Part shown: positions 34,133 to 41,339 of the stretch, in pieces
Numbering within the stretch: the stretch's first letter is position 1
Layout: the number at the start of each line of letters is the position of its first letter
Source: an uncultured Candidatus Saccharibacteria bacterium
Lineage (GTDB): Bacteria > Patescibacteriota > Saccharimonadia > Saccharimonadales > Saccharimonadaceae
Direction: 5' to 3'
Length of the DNA stretch: 64,000 nucleotides
Assembly: GCA_963539815.1 (NCBI GenBank)
Contig: CAUTMO010000003.1
Location: 131-64,130 of the forward strand
Position numbers and translations under genes: made by a program
Notes under the pieces: generated by a model
What the model was told of the DNA's origin: nothing
The model's database searches: none
What the model saw: only the letters and a program-made list of their open reading frames with translations

Positions 34133-34732
34133 TTACTTGTCTTCTAAGTCTTTTAATTTTTTACCATTAAATAACCAATAAGCTGCACCCTGGTACGCAC
34201 CACTGGCATTGCGCTTACCTTTTTTCTGGAAAATTTCACGGGTTAACGGCGACAATTTATAGACCTCGCCGTCATATTCAACCTCCCTCTCGCCAGCAAC
34301 AGTTGCACTAATGGATTTATCTTGCGCAAAGACAATCACGTCACCGTTTTTCAGCCCTTTTTGATAAAAACTAAATAGCGACCCCTGCTTTCGCAATCGC
34401 ACTACATCGTCAAATGCATGCTCCTTATTGATATTTTTTGGATAAACTACTTGACCGTCAAATGCCAGCAATAGCTGTTTAACGAGTTCACAATCTAGAG
34501 CAAACAGCTCACTATCATCGACTCGATGCTTACTAAAAATTTCATGTAGCAACGCCTCTTTATCATCATAATCGTTGAGTTCAATAGCAAAAAATTGCTT
34601 CAGCCCAGAAACATTATAATACCCATTCCGCTCAAGATGTCGCATTCTCTCGTTGTAGTTTTGTAATCCAGTTTTACCGATTTTAATCAGCCCAGAGACT
34701 GCGGTATTCATAATATAGACAATACCTTTCAT
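34133..34732 (-). CDS. GIY-YIG-like T5orf172/MUG113-domain protein (nuclease-like) with a DUF4357-like C-terminus
   Basis: KGIVYIMNTAVSGLIKIGKTGLQNYNERMRHLERNG...ALLHEIFSKHRVDDSELFALD fits the T5orf172/MUG113 pattern. SD AAAGGAG lies 5 nt upstream. Confidence 0.65.
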   Translation of the reverse strand: MKGIVYIMNTAVSGLIKIGKTGLQNYNERMRHLERNGYYNVSGLKQFFAIELNDYDDKEALLHEIFSKHRVDDSELFALDCELVKQLLLAFDGQVVYPKNINKEHAFDDVVRLRKQGSLFSFYQKGLKNGDVIVFAQDKSISATVAGEREVEYDGEVYKLSPLTREIFQKKGKRNASGAYQGAAYWLFNGKKLKDLEDK

Positions 34733-35007: not shown

Positions 35008-35694
35008 TTATTTAATTTCCAGACCGCCTAAAATACACTCGCCCTTCAGATGTAGAGTCTTTTTGGCAGAATCTTTAGGTAGAGTTTTATCGTCAGTTCC
35101 GCCCAAAAATCCGCGCACTTCGTTCTCGATAATCACATCGTCTGGCAAAGTAATATTAACGCCACCGCAAAATGTAAAAATTTCAATTACAGAACCGTCT
35201 TTAATCTTTGCTTGACGCAAATCCAAATCAACACCACCAAATATCGCAACCAACGAACCGCCAGTATAATCACCTTTTACGGCGTCTTCTTCGCCCCAAA
35301 AACAAGCAATTTTCTCATTACCTGCGTTGTCTTTGTCCAGCTTTTTGGAGCGCTTAATACCCTTAGGGCTAGTATTAAACATCATGGACAAACCAGCAAC
35401 AATCAAAACCACAGGCCAGAACACCTTCCAGATACTAACGTCAACTATTCCGTAAGAATTGAGGCCAATCAGAACGCCAATCGCAACCAGCAATAATCCC
35501 CAAATCCACGACGTTTTATTTCGATAATTGAATATATTCACCAGCCCAGATAATACAAATCCCGCAGCCCAAACCGTACCCCAGAAAATGTCCCAGCTAA
35601 TGTTAATAACCTCGAGGTTCTTCAATAGTAAAACCCCGCCGAGCGCCACGACTACAATGCTCAAAAACGCTCTAATCAGAGAACTTTTCTTCAT
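35008..35694 (-). CDS. LiaF-like cell-envelope stress protein (TM region plus a DUF2154-like C-domain)
   Basis: Four or five N-terminal TM helices and a C-terminal beta-rich segment GGVDLDLRQAKIKDGSVIEIFTFCGGVNITLPDDV, typical of the LiaF/YvqF C-terminus. Confidence 0.5.
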   Translation of the reverse strand: MKKSSLIRAFLSIVVVALGGVLLLKNLEVINISWDIFWGTVWAAGFVLSGLVNIFNYRNKTSWIWGLLLVAIGVLIGLNSYGIVDVSIWKVFWPVVLIVAGLSMMFNTSPKGIKRSKKLDKDNAGNEKIACFWGEEDAVKGDYTGGSLVAIFGGVDLDLRQAKIKDGSVIEIFTFCGGVNITLPDDVIIENEVRGFLGGTDDKTLPKDSAKKTLHLKGECILGGLEIK

Positions 35695-35723: not shown

Positions 35724-36713
35724 TCAACGCTTTTTAAATTGAACAGTTTTTTTGTTCCGTTTTGATTTTATGACAATTATCACTATCAAAATAATGAACA
35801 AAAGTATTCCACCGCCAATCATCATTAACGCTGTAGTTGATGGCCAGAAGAACAATTCTTTTGGTTCGGCGGTTTTGGTGATTAGCTCATTTTTGTCCTG
35901 GCTGATTCCCCACTCGCCAGCCTTCTTTTTATAGGAAATCGACAACTCTACCTTATATTTTCCGCCCCAAAACGGCGCCAAATTGCTATCAAAATTAAAC
36001 TGCCGCGTTTCATTCGCAATCGTTGCATTCACGCCACCGTTTTTATAGACAACATTTCCCATCGGGTCTCTCACGACCAGCTTTACGTCAACATCAGCCG
36101 ACATATTACCAGAATTTTTTAAGGCAATTTCATACAATTGACTACTGTTAGAGTTCTTAACATTAAACTTCTCAATCGTCACATCACGGTGAATATCGCC
36201 AGGAACAGTTATCGCCATACGGATAGCCTGACGAGTCTGGACTTGAATGCCGCCAGCGTTATTTGACGCCTGCTTAACCTTCCGCTGAACAACCATACAT
36301 GCATTATGCTCGCCGACATCTGCTTTACTTGGAACATTTACCGTAAAATCAACAAGCGTGTTCTCGTTCGCGCCAAGAGTCACCTCTTTTTTAGAGACAG
36401 AAACCCACTTGCCCGCGCCAACTTTGTCCTCTGACTTCTCTTTACAAGTCATATCACCAGTCGTCGTAACCGTACCGTCAACCGAATAAACTTCAATCGT
36501 TTCTTCTTTATCAGACCCGTTTTGAACATACAATTGGTCAGATTTCGAGGCGCCACCAGAAAGATTATATATGAAAATTGAGCTTGTCCTGGGATTATTA
36601 GGATCAGGATTTGCTGGTCGACCACCAATACCATTAGCAGACACCGACACAGGCAAAATCAGCCCTACAATCATCGCCACTCCAATAACCTTACTCCACA
36701 ACAAATTCTTCAT
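35724..36713 (-). CDS. CscA-like cell-surface protein (DUF916/DUF3324-like) with a C-terminal TM anchor
   Basis: Signal peptide, then IFIYNLSGGASKSDQLYVQNGSDKEETIEVYSVDG (the pattern seen at the start of DUF916 proteins), two beta-rich domains, and a C-terminal TM plus KSKRNKK tail. Confidence 0.5.
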   Translation of the reverse strand: MKNLLWSKVIGVAMIVGLILPVSVSANGIGGRPANPDPNNPRTSSIFIYNLSGGASKSDQLYVQNGSDKEETIEVYSVDGTVTTTGDMTCKEKSEDKVGAGKWVSVSKKEVTLGANENTLVDFTVNVPSKADVGEHNACMVVQRKVKQASNNAGGIQVQTRQAIRMAITVPGDIHRDVTIEKFNVKNSNSSQLYEIALKNSGNMSADVDVKLVVRDPMGNVVYKNGGVNATIANETRQFNFDSNLAPFWGGKYKVELSISYKKKAGEWGISQDKNELITKTAEPKELFFWPSTTALMMIGGGILLFIILIVIIVIKSKRNKKTVQFKKR

Positions 36714-36817
36714 ACCCCTCCTTAAAAACCTATTATGCTTATTATATCAATGTCACACATAAAAGAATAGACACTCATCAGAATGTCTATTCTCGCTCAA
36801 TAATCTAAGCCTTTTTA

Positions 36818-37462
36818 TTAAATAGCCGTGACAGTCTGAACCATTGGAAGAGTATATGTACCAGCTGACTGAGAAGCTGGAATAGCCTGAGTCAATCCAA
36901 TGCCCGTAATATAGCCAGCCCAAACTTTATCTGCACTAGCTGAGGCTGTCATCAATCTAACTGGATTACTTCCACTAAATGCAGTCGCAGTGTTTTTTAA
37001 TACACCAGTACCTGAACCAATTACTGGAGTAATTGTTCCCGCCGAAGGATTGACTGTTAATTGTCCAGTAGTAGCATTAGCATTATATTTATAAGTGTCA
37101 GATCCAGCAGAACGCCATTCACCAGACCCTGGCTGAAGAGCATTTAGAGTCAGAGTCCAGCCATTATTTGCGGCACCCGGATTTTCAACATAAATACGAT
37201 TCTGATTATCTCCAAATGTTCCAGTTGAAGTCTGTTGCGAAAAAGATACAGTTTTAGCTGCCATAGAAAATGTTGGATTATTAACCGCAACATTACTTGA
37301 ATTACGAATGTCAGTACTCAAGACTCCAGGATTAATTGTCTGAGAGAGTTTAGAGCTGGCGGTAGTTGCAGCATTAGCAACAGAGGAATTCGTCATATTA
37401 TACAATCCCAATAGACCAACCACGCCTACGCTCGCAATGATTAATAATGCTAATTTTTTCAT
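36818..37462 (-). CDS. Secreted WxL-like domain protein (CscB-like)
   Basis: Signal peptide ending ANA. NNGWTLTLNA (a WxL motif) and a C-terminal SAGTYTLPMVQTVTAI. The C-terminal ~150 aa are clearly homologous to the C-terminus of the 828-aa neighbour. Confidence 0.55.
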   Translation of the reverse strand: MKKLALLIIASVGVVGLLGLYNMTNSSVANAATTASSKLSQTINPGVLSTDIRNSSNVAVNNPTFSMAAKTVSFSQQTSTGTFGDNQNRIYVENPGAANNGWTLTLNALQPGSGEWRSAGSDTYKYNANATTGQLTVNPSAGTITPVIGSGTGVLKNTATAFSGSNPVRLMTASASADKVWAGYITGIGLTQAIPASQSAGTYTLPMVQTVTAI

Positions 37463-37521
37463 TTTTTCTCCTTACTTAATTGATTTAATTTATTATGCTA
37501 ATAATTACTGTGGTTATTTTT

Positions 37522-38235
37522 TCATTCATCCCTCTTTTTCTGTTTTTTAACAATAAATAACATAATGAACGCCGCAACAATTACACCAATGCCAGCAGCC
37601 ATAATCGTCCATAAATTAATTCCCGTATTAGCCAAAGCCTTGCTTATCTCTTTAATAACCTTCGGAATAACAATAACATCTTCAATAGTCTTTTCCACGG
37701 TCTTTTTCGGAGTCGTAAATGAAAAATCAGCAAACCTCACTACTTCCGGAGATGTTGCATTAGCCTTCAGTTTAGTTGTAACGCGACCGTTATAAGTGTG
37801 TTCTGGAGCTAGCGTCATAAAATTATCACCTGGATGATTATTCTGCCAATTTGAAAAATCCAACACCCATATATTTCCGTTAACTTTAAGCTCGCTATCC
37901 CGCCCTAAAACAAAAGTCCTACCACCAAACTCAACCTTCAAATCGTGCTGGCCCGTCGCGGGATTAGCTACCGTATGTACCGCGTCATAAACGCCATGCA
38001 CCAGCAGATCTTTCCCATTTACCAAATCAAACTTAGAGAATTTTGGCGGAAAAATCGGACAAATTGACTCATTCATCTGACCACCCGTTTCCAGGGAATC
38101 ATGAGCACAATCAGTAATCACTTGCGACAAATTAGAATTAGCCGACGAGTTCGCAAAAGCCGAATAAGGACTACTCAAAGTAGCTAGTAATGTTATGACG
38201 ATGAATAATTTTTTTACTCTATTTTTCATACTCAA
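37522..38235 (-). CDS. Cell-wall-anchored surface protein with a LAxTG sorting signal (CscD-like position)
   Basis: Signal peptide, then a C-terminal LANTG (DNA 37621..37635) followed by a hydrophobic stretch and KKQKKRDE. Confidence 0.7.
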   Translation of the reverse strand: MSMKNRVKKLFIVITLLATLSSPYSAFANSSANSNLSQVITDCAHDSLETGGQMNESICPIFPPKFSKFDLVNGKDLLVHGVYDAVHTVANPATGQHDLKVEFGGRTFVLGRDSELKVNGNIWVLDFSNWQNNHPGDNFMTLAPEHTYNGRVTTKLKANATSPEVVRFADFSFTTPKKTVEKTIEDVIVIPKVIKEISKALANTGINLWTIMAAGIGVIVAAFIMLFIVKKQKKRDE

Positions 38236-38237
38236 CC

Positions 38238-40658
38238 CTATTGCGCTGTTACCGTTAATGTCATTGGCAATTCATAAGTTCCTGGTTTTTGATATGCTGG
38301 AATAGTCTGGTTTAATCGAACGTTCTGTAGCAAAAATGCGCACCCCAATTGACCAGTTGATCCACTGCTGCTCATCAATGTAACGCCGTTAGCCGTAGCA
38401 GTCCCCACCTTAAATTGAGAATCAACGCCCTTTGATATTCCTGATATCTGGCAAGTTGACCCGCTCAATGAATTACCCGAAGCTAAGACAGATGATGTGC
38501 CAAAATTGACAGACAGAAATCCCTGATCGCCATTAGTGCCGTTGAACATATACGATTCTGTACCAGCAGTTCGCTTCCATTTGGCGGTCGCGCCGTCAGA
38601 TGCCGACAACACAACGCTCCACCCAGAGATGGTCTGTGTATTCGTCACTTCAATTTGCTTCGAGCTTGAGTTGGACAAGAAAGCGCTGGTGGCTACGCTG
38701 CTATTGCTCATAATTGAGTTGTCAAACTTCGTACCAGTATCTGTAATTGTGGCGCCAGCATTATCCCTAAAACGAATGTCTAACGACCCAGGGGCGGTCT
38801 TAAATTCTGGATACATTGTGTAGCTATCAATACTAGATCCAGGAGCGACAGTCGTGTCGGTTGCTACGCGGACGCAATAACTTTCATTCCTATCAAGCCC
38901 TTTATCAACAAGCGCCAGATCCCACACACCCACTTCGCCAGCAGATATTTTTTGCGCATTTGTGAACGTTCCAGCCACTCCGCTTTTTCTCACCAGACTT
39001 TGAGGTCGAGAAGCGATAGCTCCTGACGGCAATTCTGGATCAGACGAGTTGCTATTGATATTAGTGCCATCAGCAGGACCACTCGCAGAATAAGCAAGTT
39101 TTGACGTTCCGGTCACGACTTGCCAATCTGAACTACTTACAGCCGAACAAGTTGCCGCGCTGCCCTTTTTTGCATATTCGACGCGCAGCTTCATTGACGA
39201 GGATTCAACGGCTCCTCCTGGAGGCACAATTAACGTAGGGCGCGTAACAGGACTGTTGCTCGACTGGCCATTCCCTACCTGACCCTTGTTATTATTACCC
39301 CAACAATACATCTCGCCCGTACGTAAAGCGCATAAAAAGTCTTTGCCTACATACATAGAAGTTTCACCAGAACTCGTAAATGGAACATTCACTTTTACGG
39401 GAGCGGGCAAAAATCCTGTAGCAGCCCCACTACCCATTTGACCATTAGAATTATCACCCCAGCAATAAATTTCGCCAGTACTCAGTACTACACACGTGAA
39501 TTCACCGCCAGCGTAAACATTTTTAATAGTCTTCCCTCCAGAAAGGACACTACTGCCAAAAGGAACTCTTGAAGCAATATTTCTATAACCCATCGCTGTA
39601 ACACCCAACTGACCCTTGTCATTTTTTCCCCAACAATATACTTCCTGACCACCAGAAATAACAGCACAAGCATGTGAATCACCAGCAGATATTGACTCAA
39701 CTTTTTTTCCATTAAAACCTTTGACTGCAGTAGGATATTGAGTTCTACCACCAGCAAGTCCTACTCCAGTCCTCCCCTTATCATTAGACCCCCAGCAGAA
39801 TGCTGTGCCTTCAACCGTCGAAGCGCACGTAAATTTATCTCCTGCAACAACCTGCTTAACCGATTCTGTCCCAAAGTTACTCATATTAACCGCTGTTGGC
39901 GTGGTTGAGGCTAAGAAAACATCACGACCCAATTCTCCATTTATACCTCTGCCCCAACAGTATAATTTTCTCTCCGAGTTAAGCGAACAAGTATGCTCAT
40001 TACCCGCCGCAATCTGAGAGACAACCGTGGTCGCGAATTCTCTAACTGGATATGGAGCATTTTTCTGAACTATACCACTATTCCCTAATCTTCCAGCTTT
40101 GCCATAGCCCCAACAATAATCTTTATCGTCAGAAGCGATTGCACAAGTGTGATAATAACCAGTGGTAATCTGTTTGATAGTTTTCCCATTGAGAACGTCT
40201 TGTATATATACAGGCACTGGGGTTGTTGATGAATTAGTTGAATTAGTACCAAGAACTCCATACTGACCATTGCCCCAACAATAAACACTATCATCCGACA
40301 TAATGGCGCAGTTATGCTCATACCCGCTTCCGTATTCAGCTAATTTTTTAAAATATGCACTCTTATTTTGAAGGCCAACCCTCAACCGAAAATCAGCGCC
40401 TACTTTTGGTAACGTGGCAGCGGTGTTGGTATTTGCAAGCGGACTACCTGGATTAATACCATTGGACGATTCGTATAATCGATAAGAAACTTGCCCCACT
40501 TCAATCTGCTTGCCACCACTAGGAATAGTTGCACGACTTTGCTGAGGGCTCAAAAACATAAATCCTAAAGCTACGCTAACGACAATAAAACCGCCAAGGA
40601 TAAAAAATCTCTTGGCTTTACGGTCTTTTATTATTGATAACGTTCTATTATGTTCCAT
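38238..40658 (-). CDS. Secreted 7-bladed RCC1-like beta-propeller protein with a C-terminal WxL-like domain (CscC-like)
   Basis: Seven repeats ending YCWGNGQYGVLG, YCWGYGKAGRLG, YCWGRGINGELG, FCWGSNDKGRTG, YCWGKNDKGQLG, YCWGDNSNGQMG and YCWGNNNKGQVG. The C-terminus has ISGWSVVLSA...PGTYELPMTLTVTAQ. I prefer the start at MEHNRTL (40658). The tracked ORF begins at 40724. Confidence 0.8.
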   Translation of the reverse strand: MEHNRTLSIIKDRKAKRFFILGGFIVVSVALGFMFLSPQQSRATIPSGGKQIEVGQVSYRLYESSNGINPGSPLANTNTAATLPKVGADFRLRVGLQNKSAYFKKLAEYGSGYEHNCAIMSDDSVYCWGNGQYGVLGTNSTNSSTTPVPVYIQDVLNGKTIKQITTGYYHTCAIASDDKDYCWGYGKAGRLGNSGIVQKNAPYPVREFATTVVSQIAAGNEHTCSLNSERKLYCWGRGINGELGRDVFLASTTPTAVNMSNFGTESVKQVVAGDKFTCASTVEGTAFCWGSNDKGRTGVGLAGGRTQYPTAVKGFNGKKVESISAGDSHACAVISGGQEVYCWGKNDKGQLGVTAMGYRNIASRVPFGSSVLSGGKTIKNVYAGGEFTCVVLSTGEIYCWGDNSNGQMGSGAATGFLPAPVKVNVPFTSSGETSMYVGKDFLCALRTGEMYCWGNNNKGQVGNGQSSNSPVTRPTLIVPPGGAVESSSMKLRVEYAKKGSAATCSAVSSSDWQVVTGTSKLAYSASGPADGTNINSNSSDPELPSGAIASRPQSLVRKSGVAGTFTNAQKISAGEVGVWDLALVDKGLDRNESYCVRVATDTTVAPGSSIDSYTMYPEFKTAPGSLDIRFRDNAGATITDTGTKFDNSIMSNSSVATSAFLSNSSSKQIEVTNTQTISGWSVVLSASDGATAKWKRTAGTESYMFNGTNGDQGFLSVNFGTSSVLASGNSLSGSTCQISGISKGVDSQFKVGTATANGVTLMSSSGSTGQLGCAFLLQNVRLNQTIPAYQKPGTYELPMTLTVTAQ

Positions 40659-40730
40659 AGTGGTGGTATAGATTGAGCATAAATATACATCATAAATATA
40701 CCATAAGCATTTTACATAAAGCAAGCAAAA

Positions 40731-41339
40731 CTAGAACAATTGACTGCCGAATTTGGCGATTATCGCGATAATTACCGCGACGACCAGCGAAACCACGACA
40801 AGCGCATCATATCCGCCACCAACAACCTTCTGCGCACAACGACAAGAAATATTTTTCTGCAGAACATTATAGCGCGTCAAACCGAGCATAATCATCAACA
40901 TTCCAAGATCCAAAGTCAAGCACCACGGACAAAGCACGCCAATTTCGACGTAGCTCATATAAAACATCCAAATAGCAAATATCATTCCGATGATAGCACC
41001 AGCCTGCGCCGCCTGCATAAACCACTTCGGGAATTTTGCTCCCGCCAATAATGCCACTGCAATTGTTACCATAACAGGCAAAGTCATCACGCCGATAAAA
41101 CTATTTGGAAATCCTAAAACAGCCGCCGACCAATGATTCGCCACCGCCGAACAGCTCAGAGCCGAGCTAAAATCGCAGCTTAATACAGCGTGAGAGTTTT
41201 TTGCTAATTCTAGAGATTCAATAGACAACACAAATGATGCCAATAACCCTAATCCACTACCGACAAGCATTATAAACGCCGCCAAATTTTGCTTTTTCAA
41301 ATCTTCGTGAAATAGCCAGTTTTTGATTTTATTAAACAT
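40731..41339 (-). CDS. Vitamin K epoxide reductase (VKOR) family disulfide-bond-forming membrane protein
   Basis: A loop Cys pair (LSCDFSSALSC) and an active-site CPWC within a 4-5 TM protein. Confidence 0.85.
   Translation of the reverse strand: MFNKIKNWLFHEDLKKQNLAAFIMLVGSGLGLLASFVLSIESLELAKNSHAVLSCDFSSALSCSAVANHWSAAVLGFPNSFIGVMTLPVMVTIAVALLAGAKFPKWFMQAAQAGAIIGMIFAIWMFYMSYVEIGVLCPWCLTLDLGMLMIMLGLTRYNVLQKNISCRCAQKVVGGGYDALVVVSLVVAVIIAIIAKFGSQLF

Follow-up and report, generated by a model that had tools for sequence, protein, structure and literature searches.

A probable, strongly diverged WxL/Csc-type cell-surface complex of Saccharibacteria with a seven-bladed RCC1 propeller protein

The WxL or cell-surface complex (Csc) gene clusters known from Lactobacillales, Listeria and Bacillus have received both a definition and a proposed mechanism (PMC1534035, PMC9772566, PMC10599100), and for the canonical clusters AlphaFold2 (AF2) predicts a hairpin strand of the DUF916 protein that completes the WxL sandwich, together with two perpendicular immunoglobulin-like (Ig) domains (PMC10599100). 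A published census lists TM7x_00820, a protein of 329 amino acids (aa), as an orphan DUF916 protein devoid of any WxL partner in its genome (Hassan 2023, Table S5, PMC10599100), and literature searches retrieved no papers dealing with WxL and Saccharibacteria or with TM7x and DUF916. The present analysis concerns a four-gene locus at positions 35724-40724 of a stretch of 64,000 nucleotides (the window) from an uncultured Candidatus Saccharibacteria bacterium (contig CAUTMO010000003.1, assembly GCA_963539815.1), which an initial annotation had compared to the csc clusters. The locus is regarded here as the Saccharibacteria (Nanosynbacter-type) version of the WxL/Csc cell-surface complex, with a rough probability of 0.72, and it probably descended from a WxL/Csc cluster. 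The gene layout and the occurrence of RCC1 cargo on WxL-type proteins were already known; the new elements are the identification of cryptic, WxL-like proteins as partners of the orphan DUF916 proteins of Saccharibacteria, and that of a large unannotated C-terminal domain family of Patescibacteria occurring in a fixed and conserved genomic setting.

The four open reading frames (ORFs) all lie on the minus strand and occupy the interval 35724-40724, with products of 828 (or 806), 237, 214 and 329 aa, as initially annotated. Each product begins with a hydrophobic N-terminal leader, as judged by eye, and the LANTG protein gene starts 2 nt past the stop of the large gene. From the N- to the C-terminus, the large protein comprises a signal/anchor segment, a seven-blade RCC1 propeller, a middle domain and a WxL-like domain. 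The genes and their domains are distributed as follows:

38238..40724, minus strand: large subunit gene, 828 aa with a TTG start, or 806 aa if the ATG at 40658 is used
39225..40337, minus strand: predicted RCC1 β-propeller of seven blades, about aa 130-500 of the large protein (seven Pfam RCC1 stretches, CWG repeats)
38793..39212, minus strand: conserved middle domain, about aa 505-644 of the large protein (jackhmmer 'mid' matches)
38241..38792, minus strand: WxL-like domain at the C-terminus of the large protein, about aa 645-828 (aligned with the small protein by BLASTP)
37522..38235, minus strand: LANTG protein gene, 237 aa (TIGR01167 match; CscD-like position, larger size)
37525..37635, minus strand: sorting signal, aa 201-237 of the 237-aa protein (sequence, regular expression and tail check)
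36818..37462, minus strand: small subunit gene, 214 aa (signal peptide and a single WxL-like domain)
35724..36713, minus strand: DUF916/WxLIP-like gene, 329 aa (PF06030 match)

The 329-aa protein, which had been described as DUF916-like with a C-terminal membrane anchor, does match PF06030 (DUF916/WxLIP_PGBD) at 34.9 bits for a cut-off of 27.3. The PGBD threshold is likewise passed by nine out of nine diverse Saccharibacteria orthologues (29-50 bits), and the N-terminal half of the protein aligns in hhalign with the canonical PGBD at a probability of 95.7% and an E-value of 8e-9. A signal peptide is followed by a PGBD Ig-like domain (aa 36-136), by a second, uncharacterised domain, and by a C-terminal transmembrane (TM) segment with a basic tail (...TTALMMIGGGILLFIILIVIIVIKSKRNKK..., recognised by inspection). 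These profile matches identify a genuine DUF916/WxLIP Ig domain of the peptidoglycan-binding type, associated with a membrane anchor. The protein has the same length, 329 aa, as the orphan TM7x_00820, to which it is likened by length alone. The published census would have missed the partners of the Saccharibacteria DUF916 proteins because these partners are too diverged for Pfam. Among distant Saccharibacteria, some DUF916 proteins carry a C-terminal LysM past the hydrophobic segment (L001:8735-10036, L003:8660-9841, L086:3184-4377), in loci with the gene order small / DUF916-LysM / large; this LysM would stand on the wrong side of the membrane if the hydrophobic segment were a true TM helix.

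The block of four genes recurs widely. A scan of the GTDB species representatives, performed with the closer sequence set (alignment A5), yielded 80 loci, all of them from Saccharibacteria. Of these, 64 carry the complete block on a single strand, arranged as large / LAxTG / small / DUF916, a recurrence that exceeds chance by far and bears out the synteny expected among relatives. The 16 other loci are without one or more of the four genes, several of them being merely 0.9-3.7 kb long, and a second small paralogue occurs in three loci. The closest locus, 99% identical, belongs to an uncultured Saccharibacteria metagenome-assembled genome (MAG; L009).

As had been proposed, the small protein shares a domain with the C-terminus of the large one, and BLASTP aligns the two with 32% identity over 127 aa (E 7e-13). 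The proposed length of about 150 aa has to be extended, profile alignments widening the domain to some 180 aa (in the large protein aa 645-828, in the small one aa 36-214). Judging from these alignments, the two regions are paralogous. Homologues of the small protein are abundant, every one with a source name comes from Saccharibacteria, and none shows a Pfam domain. An exhaustive profile search over 1.84 billion representatives gave at least 766 clusters (50% identity) at E<=1e-3, of which 395 pass E<=1e-30; one named family member originates from a "Patescibacteria group bacterium". In nearly every one of 150 representatives, the domain occupies the extreme C-terminus of proteins ranging from about 200 to 1744 aa, and it is linked genomically to DUF916. 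The cargo identified in 53 scanned large members is diverse, with RCC1 (8), Ig_Rha78A_N (5), DUF7483 (4), DUF2341 (4), ConA-like Laminin_G_3 (4), a β-helix (1) and others. Residues W702, W716, Q806 and P809 of the large-protein copy are invariant in the 53-member alignment and Y817 nearly so, the invariant positions of the small protein being W102-T-L, W116, P195 and Y203. An AF2 model of the small protein, with a predicted local distance difference test score (pLDDT) of 87.4, is all-β. In this respect, the domain represents a new, unannotated C-terminal surface-display family with modular cargo, whose source-named members belong to Saccharibacteria or other Patescibacteria.

With respect to the origin of this domain, useful intermediates were found outside Saccharibacteria. 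A tblastn search of plasmids with the DUF916 protein retrieved annotated DUF916 proteins in Paenibacillus and Actinobacteria. On the Paenibacillus urinalis plasmid NZ_CP118110, the DUF916 gene (WP_205054980) is followed by a 189-aa "WxL domain-containing protein" (WP_211750217; PF13731 at 30.1 bits for a cut-off of 25) and by a third gene encoding a 1048-aa "RCC1 domain-containing protein" (WP_205054978), the C-terminus of which scores 20.8 bits as WxL. The view that an RCC1 large subunit was without precedent in such a complex is refuted by this plasmid. A further tblastn search of plasmids with the Paenibacillus WxLIP returned Paenibacillaceae only and no canonical clusters. The canonical WxL set was seeded by a fragment of lmo0551 reconstructed by optical character recognition from additional file 7 of Siezen 2006 (PMC1534035); a search with this fragment gave 7 sequences, and the set was then widened via two canonical loci.

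Compared by hhalign, the Saccharibacteria family scores 22.2 (P 0.012) against canonical WxL, 23.7 (P 0.007) against Paenibacillus WxL, and 27.6 (P 0.0015), over 156 in-register columns, against the two combined, the positive control of Paenibacillus against canonical WxL giving a probability of 95% and an E-value of 2e-8. Column-shuffled profiles, 150 in each of the three comparisons, never reached the observed score (0/150 each; combined null 11.0 +/- 1.8, maximum 16.1), reversed sequences scored 10-12, and real families of similar composition, taken from the same loci, 11.8-14.1. These trimmed-domain profiles replaced runs in which the target was one Paenibacillus WxL sequence (E 0.21) or a shallow Paenibacillus profile (E 2.5e-4, motif 1 only). 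The motifs are colinear: the family block V-[DE]-N-P-G-G-A-N-N-G-W-T-L aligns with the canonical V-x-D-x-R-G-x-x-x-G-W-x-L, so that the first WxL motif is present and invariant as W102-T103-L104. Towards the C-terminus, L-x-Q-x-I-P-(7)-G-T-Y-T-L-x-M-T-Q-T-V-T-A aligns with L-x-V-P-(7-10)-Y-x-x-x-L-T-W-T-L, the general family block [LI]x[IV]P...GTYxxx[LM]Tx[TS][LV] being colinear with LxVP...YxxxLTWTL, and P195 and Y203 fall on the conserved P and Y of canonical WxL. The length and placement are also those of WxL domains, with 160-190 aa at the extreme C-terminus, the small protein consisting of a signal peptide plus the domain and the large one of cargo plus the domain. The domain is thus probably a remote member of the WxL superfamily, and probably a one-Trp variant of WxL; profile-profile comparison, motif colinearity and context alone connect the two, and only at a distance.

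Similar situations may exist elsewhere. Orphan DUF916 genes on Clavibacter and Arthrobacter plasmids are flanked by small secreted proteins (L005:6095-6721, L006:6232-6741, L006:7953-8537) showing a TD...GW pattern and a C-terminal DY..T[IL]T.S[VL], as in the window family. A neighbour of the Arthrobacter DUF916 protein scores 21.3 bits as WxL, and the family HMMER profile gave nothing significant against the DUF916-adjacent proteins of Paenibacillus, Arthrobacter and Clavibacter. Judging from these motifs, cryptic WxL-like partners may be general for DUF916 proteins outside Firmicutes.

The cargo of the large protein of the window is readily recognised. Pfam RCC1, RCC1_2 and WD40_RLD all match it, with E-values from 1e-56 to 3e-70; PF00415 (E 1.4e-58) and PF13540 (E 2.6e-56) match in seven stretches each, and PF25390 reaches 237.6 bits. 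Together with seven CWG repeats between aa 149 and 474, these matches uphold the seven blades of the initial annotation and predict a single propeller built from seven RCC1 repeats. Exactly 14 Cys residues occur between aa 100 and 505, corresponding to two per blade. The middle domain has no Pfam match; in the relatives' loci, jackhmmer matches to it are found together with the WxL-like domain on the large proteins, and conserved consensus columns precede the C-terminal domain in the 53 large family members. In several MAG-derived loci (L051, L055, L078, L009) the RCC1 gene is broken into two or three ORFs, which could result from assembly frameshifts or from a real pseudogenisation or phase variation of the large subunit.

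The 237-aa protein, with a mature domain of about 165 aa, ends with LANTG, 24 hydrophobic residues and the basic tail KKQKKRDE, and it matches TIGR01167 at 19.3 bits for a cut-off of 15.9, so that its annotation as a sortase-type protein holds at the sequence level. It also gives a weak match to NF053819, the EF2685/EF0750 family (E 0.019). Among the loci the sorting motif reads LANTG in 68 and LASTG in 7 (75 in total); LAxTG is the motif of class E sortases. A second sortase-type substrate of 156 aa, with LPKTG, a hydrophobic segment and a basic tail (PF00746, 20.6 bits), is encoded at 60066-60536. In addition, several Nanosynbacter-type genomes (L014, L015, L030, L032, L035, L037, L038, L039) encode, at a distance of 5-8 kb on the downstream side of the cluster, a protein of about 245 aa that bears a LAETG sorting signal; no equivalent was seen in the window between 25001 and 52000.

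Beyond the four genes, a wider order is conserved, ftsZ > nrdR > 85 aa > VKOR > large > LAxTG > small > DUF916 > LiaF-like > ileS, with the following additional features in the window:

40731..41339, minus strand: VKOR-family gene, upstream neighbour (PF07884, E 5.9e-31)
36763..36794, minus strand: hairpin with a 14-bp stem and a T-run, in the spacer that separates the small gene from the DUF916 gene
35008..35694, minus strand: LiaF-like membrane protein gene, downstream neighbour (PF18917 and PF22570, E ~1e-13 to 1e-14)

The VKOR gene lies 6 nt upstream of the large gene, and this adjacency is kept in most Saccharibacteria loci. Combined with the two Cys residues per blade, it suggests a disulfide-stapled extracytoplasmic propeller dependent on VKOR (DsbB-like) oxidation, the VKOR protein being a possible oxidative-folding partner of the Cys-rich propeller. 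The LiaF-like gene, encoding LiaI-LiaF TM and LiaF C-terminal domains, follows the DUF916 gene in the same orientation after 29 nt; its retention in nearly all loci indicates that it may be a fifth functional member, devoted to envelope-stress sensing, and not a bystander. The hairpin keeps its position across clades with three different stem sequences, and its median minimum free energy is -19.0 kcal/mol versus -6.2 for the adjacent spacer. Its structure makes it a probable intrinsic terminator or attenuator setting the stoichiometry of the subunits, and its conserved position past the small gene suggests a lower expression of the DUF916 anchor than of the three preceding genes. A promoter scan performed no better than shuffles. 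A gene with a T5orf172/MUG113 domain (34133-34732) stands between the LiaF-like gene and ileS; it is present there in just five tallied arrangements and therefore looks like a recent insertion.

In the mechanism proposed for the locus, the two WxL-like domains would dock on the DUF916 protein and on the wall, as proposed for the canonical clusters, and a sortase, probably of class E, would attach the LAxTG protein covalently to the wall. The complex would present the seven-blade RCC1 propeller, probably disulfide-stapled with the support of the adjacent VKOR protein, as an exposed ligand-binding module on the surface of the episymbiont. The propeller may plausibly bind glycans or proteins of the host actinobacterial surface, and such binding would probably not be essential for growth on a permissive host.

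A cluster of comparable composition is relevant to these ideas. In the Saccharibacterium Southlakia epibionticum, SEML1_0623-0628 comprise adjacent genes for an RCC1 protein, an LPXTG-like protein, a DUF916 protein with two Ig-like ECOD domains, and a small protein, which has a "WxL domain-containing protein" as top Foldseek match (TM-score 0.85) and CsuE 6fjy_B as ECOD template (Table S2, PMC10633639). The text of the paper is silent on this cluster, and the data come from its Tables S1 and S2 (Wang et al. 2023, PMC10633639). The genome encodes a sortase and a class E sortase; SEML1_0623-0628 were classed as non-essential by transposon sequencing (Tn-seq) in co-culture, with one and the same NE/GA/GA pattern for the LPXTG-like gene and for the class E sortase (PMC10633639). 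The initial annotation had seen in the locus an obvious candidate for host recognition or adhesion, a standing that is not supported; the Tn-seq result argues against an indispensable adhesion role, and adhesion, plausible as it is, would if real likely be accessory.

The same result is compatible with a complex that serves the capture of nutrients or polysaccharides, or the homeostasis of the envelope, and whose propeller would bind free glycans or wall fragments instead of a host. Carbohydrate acquisition has been proposed for the csc clusters (Siezen 2006, PMC1534035), lectin-type cargo occurs among the family members, and the conserved flanks include VKOR and LiaF-like envelope genes as well as division genes. 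The conserved neighbourhood is, however, devoid of glycoside hydrolase and transporter genes, and an RCC1 propeller is also borne by the type IV minor pilin PilX2 of TM7x, which is compatible, by analogy, with a role in cell-cell contact. A function of this kind thus appears possible but rather doubtful.

A number of observations weigh against the kinship with WxL/Csc itself. The profile searches suggested as a check of the initial annotation assigned the 329-aa protein to DUF916 but did not assign the shared domain to WxL: PF13731 matches neither window protein nor, even at E<=1, a single one of 89 diverse members of the family. NCBIfam gives no assignment of the domain either, and HMMER profile searches starting from the family fail to reach WxL proteins. 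The second Trp-x-Leu motif is missing, the window proteins having Q-T-V and L-T-V at that place with P195 and Y203 kept, and so is Asp-x-Arg-Gly, the family reading V-[DE]-N-P-G-[GA]-A-N-N-G-W where the canonical sequence is D-x-R-G-x-x-x-G-W. The hhalign probabilities between the family and WxL are low (3-17%), one real-family control (the LPXTG family) scored 22.1, but over 14 columns, and the AF2 model of a canonical WxL protein (pLDDT 47) is too poor for a direct comparison of the folds. CscD proteins measure 90-140 aa (Siezen 2006, PMC1534035), whereas the LANTG protein of the window is about twice as long. The 64-kb window contains no TLxTC sortase motif and no sortase gene. The DUF3324/HBD domain that the initial annotation had proposed to search for was not detected by profile scan in the 329-aa protein of the window; one of the nine orthologues shows it weakly, at the right position (17.8 bits), and hhalign of the C-terminal half against HBD is weak as well (17.4, E 0.048). 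Finally, the Foldseek target of the Southlakia small protein is perhaps itself from Saccharibacteria, and that cluster is likened to the window by composition alone. As compared with the definition of Hassan et al. 2023, the locus includes at least one WxLIP/DUF916 protein (PF06030, hhalign) but does not contain at least two Pfam-detectable WxL proteins within four genes. Without two WxL motifs, DxRG and a Pfam match, the shared domain stands outside the formal WxL definition.

Taken together, these negative results could mean that the shared domain is unrelated to WxL, as a wall- or membrane-association module specific to Patescibacteria, with a convergent likeness to the csc clusters and a coincidental adjacency to DUF916. 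Such an interpretation is unlikely in view of the full-length, in-register hhalign alignment, which beats 150 of 150 shuffles, and of motif 1 and the C-terminal P/Y/T-x-T block, which are spaced as in canonical WxL. The association with DUF916 extends over Firmicutes, Actinobacteria and Saccharibacteria and includes intermediates of graded likeness: the Paenibacillus WxL passes Pfam without a second Trp, and the Arthrobacter neighbour scores 21.3 bits. The gene order is identical to that of a Listeria-type cluster.

It is still less probable that the locus encodes a donor-strand fibre, in which the small protein, with its incomplete Ig fold, would polymerise as a pilin-like subunit by exchange of its N-terminal strand; the assignment of the RCC1 protein as a two-domain tip adhesin, of the DUF916 protein as a membrane-tethered PapD-like chaperone, and of the LAxTG protein as a wall-anchored base is just as improbable. 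The conserved strand Q41-I52 of the small protein, carried on a long linker, would suit such an exchange, as would the DUF916 strand and the perpendicular Ig domains of the published AF2 complexes (PMC10599100), and a terminator is conserved past the small-subunit gene, as after major-pilin genes. The best Protein Data Bank (PDB) neighbours of the small-protein model are donor-strand, chaperone-usher pilins (Csu, CFA/I, type 1, Caf1) and subunits of archaeal cannulae, the Csu pilus 7zl4 having a probability of 1.0 and a TMt of 0.50, and ECOD places the Southlakia small protein at CsuE 6fjy_B (PMC10633639). Yet every Foldseek E-value against the PDB lies above 1e-3 (E >= 3e-3, TM-score 0.2-0.5, high root-mean-square deviation), with no solved WxL domain among the matches, no usher-like component is present, and the WxL literature consulted describes wall-binding platforms, fibres being unmentioned; phmmer of the small protein against PDB sequences found nothing meaningful. 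Correspondingly, there is little reason to expect that WxL-type domains, in this locus or by extension in Firmicutes, act as pilin-like subunits working by donor-strand complementation or exchange; if true, this would reveal that monoderm and candidate phyla radiation (CPR) bacteria possess a chaperone-usher-like fibre system that had escaped recognition. An identity of the RCC1 protein with PilX2 is rejected in view of its place among WxL-type surface-protein genes without a pilus gene set, by its C-terminal WxL-like domain and by zero matches to pilin families.

As a WxL/Csc complex, the locus would extend this system to a new bacterial group, in a strongly diverged version, and the orphan DUF916 proteins of Actinobacteria would probably likewise possess partners too diverged for Pfam. 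For the biology of Saccharibacteria, a conserved and genetically tractable complex located next to ftsZ is a candidate accessory factor of host interaction or host range.

Among the known systems, the chaperone-usher pilins (Csu, CFA/I, type 1, Caf1) show a weak likeness of fold to the small protein, with an Ig-like sandwich and an N-terminal strand on a linker. No structural score is significant, the usher is lacking and the envelope of the window organism is of Gram-positive type, so that the comparison is an analogy only. The Southlakia cluster, similar in composition, differs by another gene order, by additional FnIII proteins and by an RCC1 protein of just 406 aa. In the Paenibacillus cluster, the proteins also lack the second Trp, having Tyr or Phe in its place (FTYTATSGI / FTFTLTSGI), and have the same AGTY motif as the window family; it differs in that its small protein passes the Pfam WxL threshold, DxRG is kept (DDRGNGAGW), the RCC1 match is weaker (E 2e-10), no LPXTG gene is annotated, the order is DUF916 / small / large, and the cluster is plasmid-borne.

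As compared to the csc/WxL clusters, the domain of the window goes undetected by PF13731, with Gln or Leu in place of the second Trp and [DE]NPGG in place of DxRG; the small and large copies form one family, whereas the canonical proteins fall into distinct WxL1 and WxL2 types, and DUF3324 is undetected in the DUF916 protein, unlike the canonical WxLIP organisation (DUF916-DUF3324-TM). Also unlike the csc clusters, the locus belongs to the phylum Patescibacteria and occurs once per genome region, at a fixed place by ftsZ/nrdR. In the csc/WxL clusters as in the window, nevertheless, one membrane-anchored DUF916 protein is associated with one LPXTG-type protein, with a small protein made of a signal peptide and the domain, and with a large protein in which a variable N-terminal cargo precedes the same C-terminal domain, all four products bearing N-terminal leaders. 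The first WxL motif and the C-terminal P...Y...T-x-T block are in register, and the resemblance in four-part composition that had initially been pointed out is upheld down to the order of the genes, since the Listeria-type cluster L008 displays that of the window: large WxL / LPKTG protein of 95 aa / small WxL / WxLIP.

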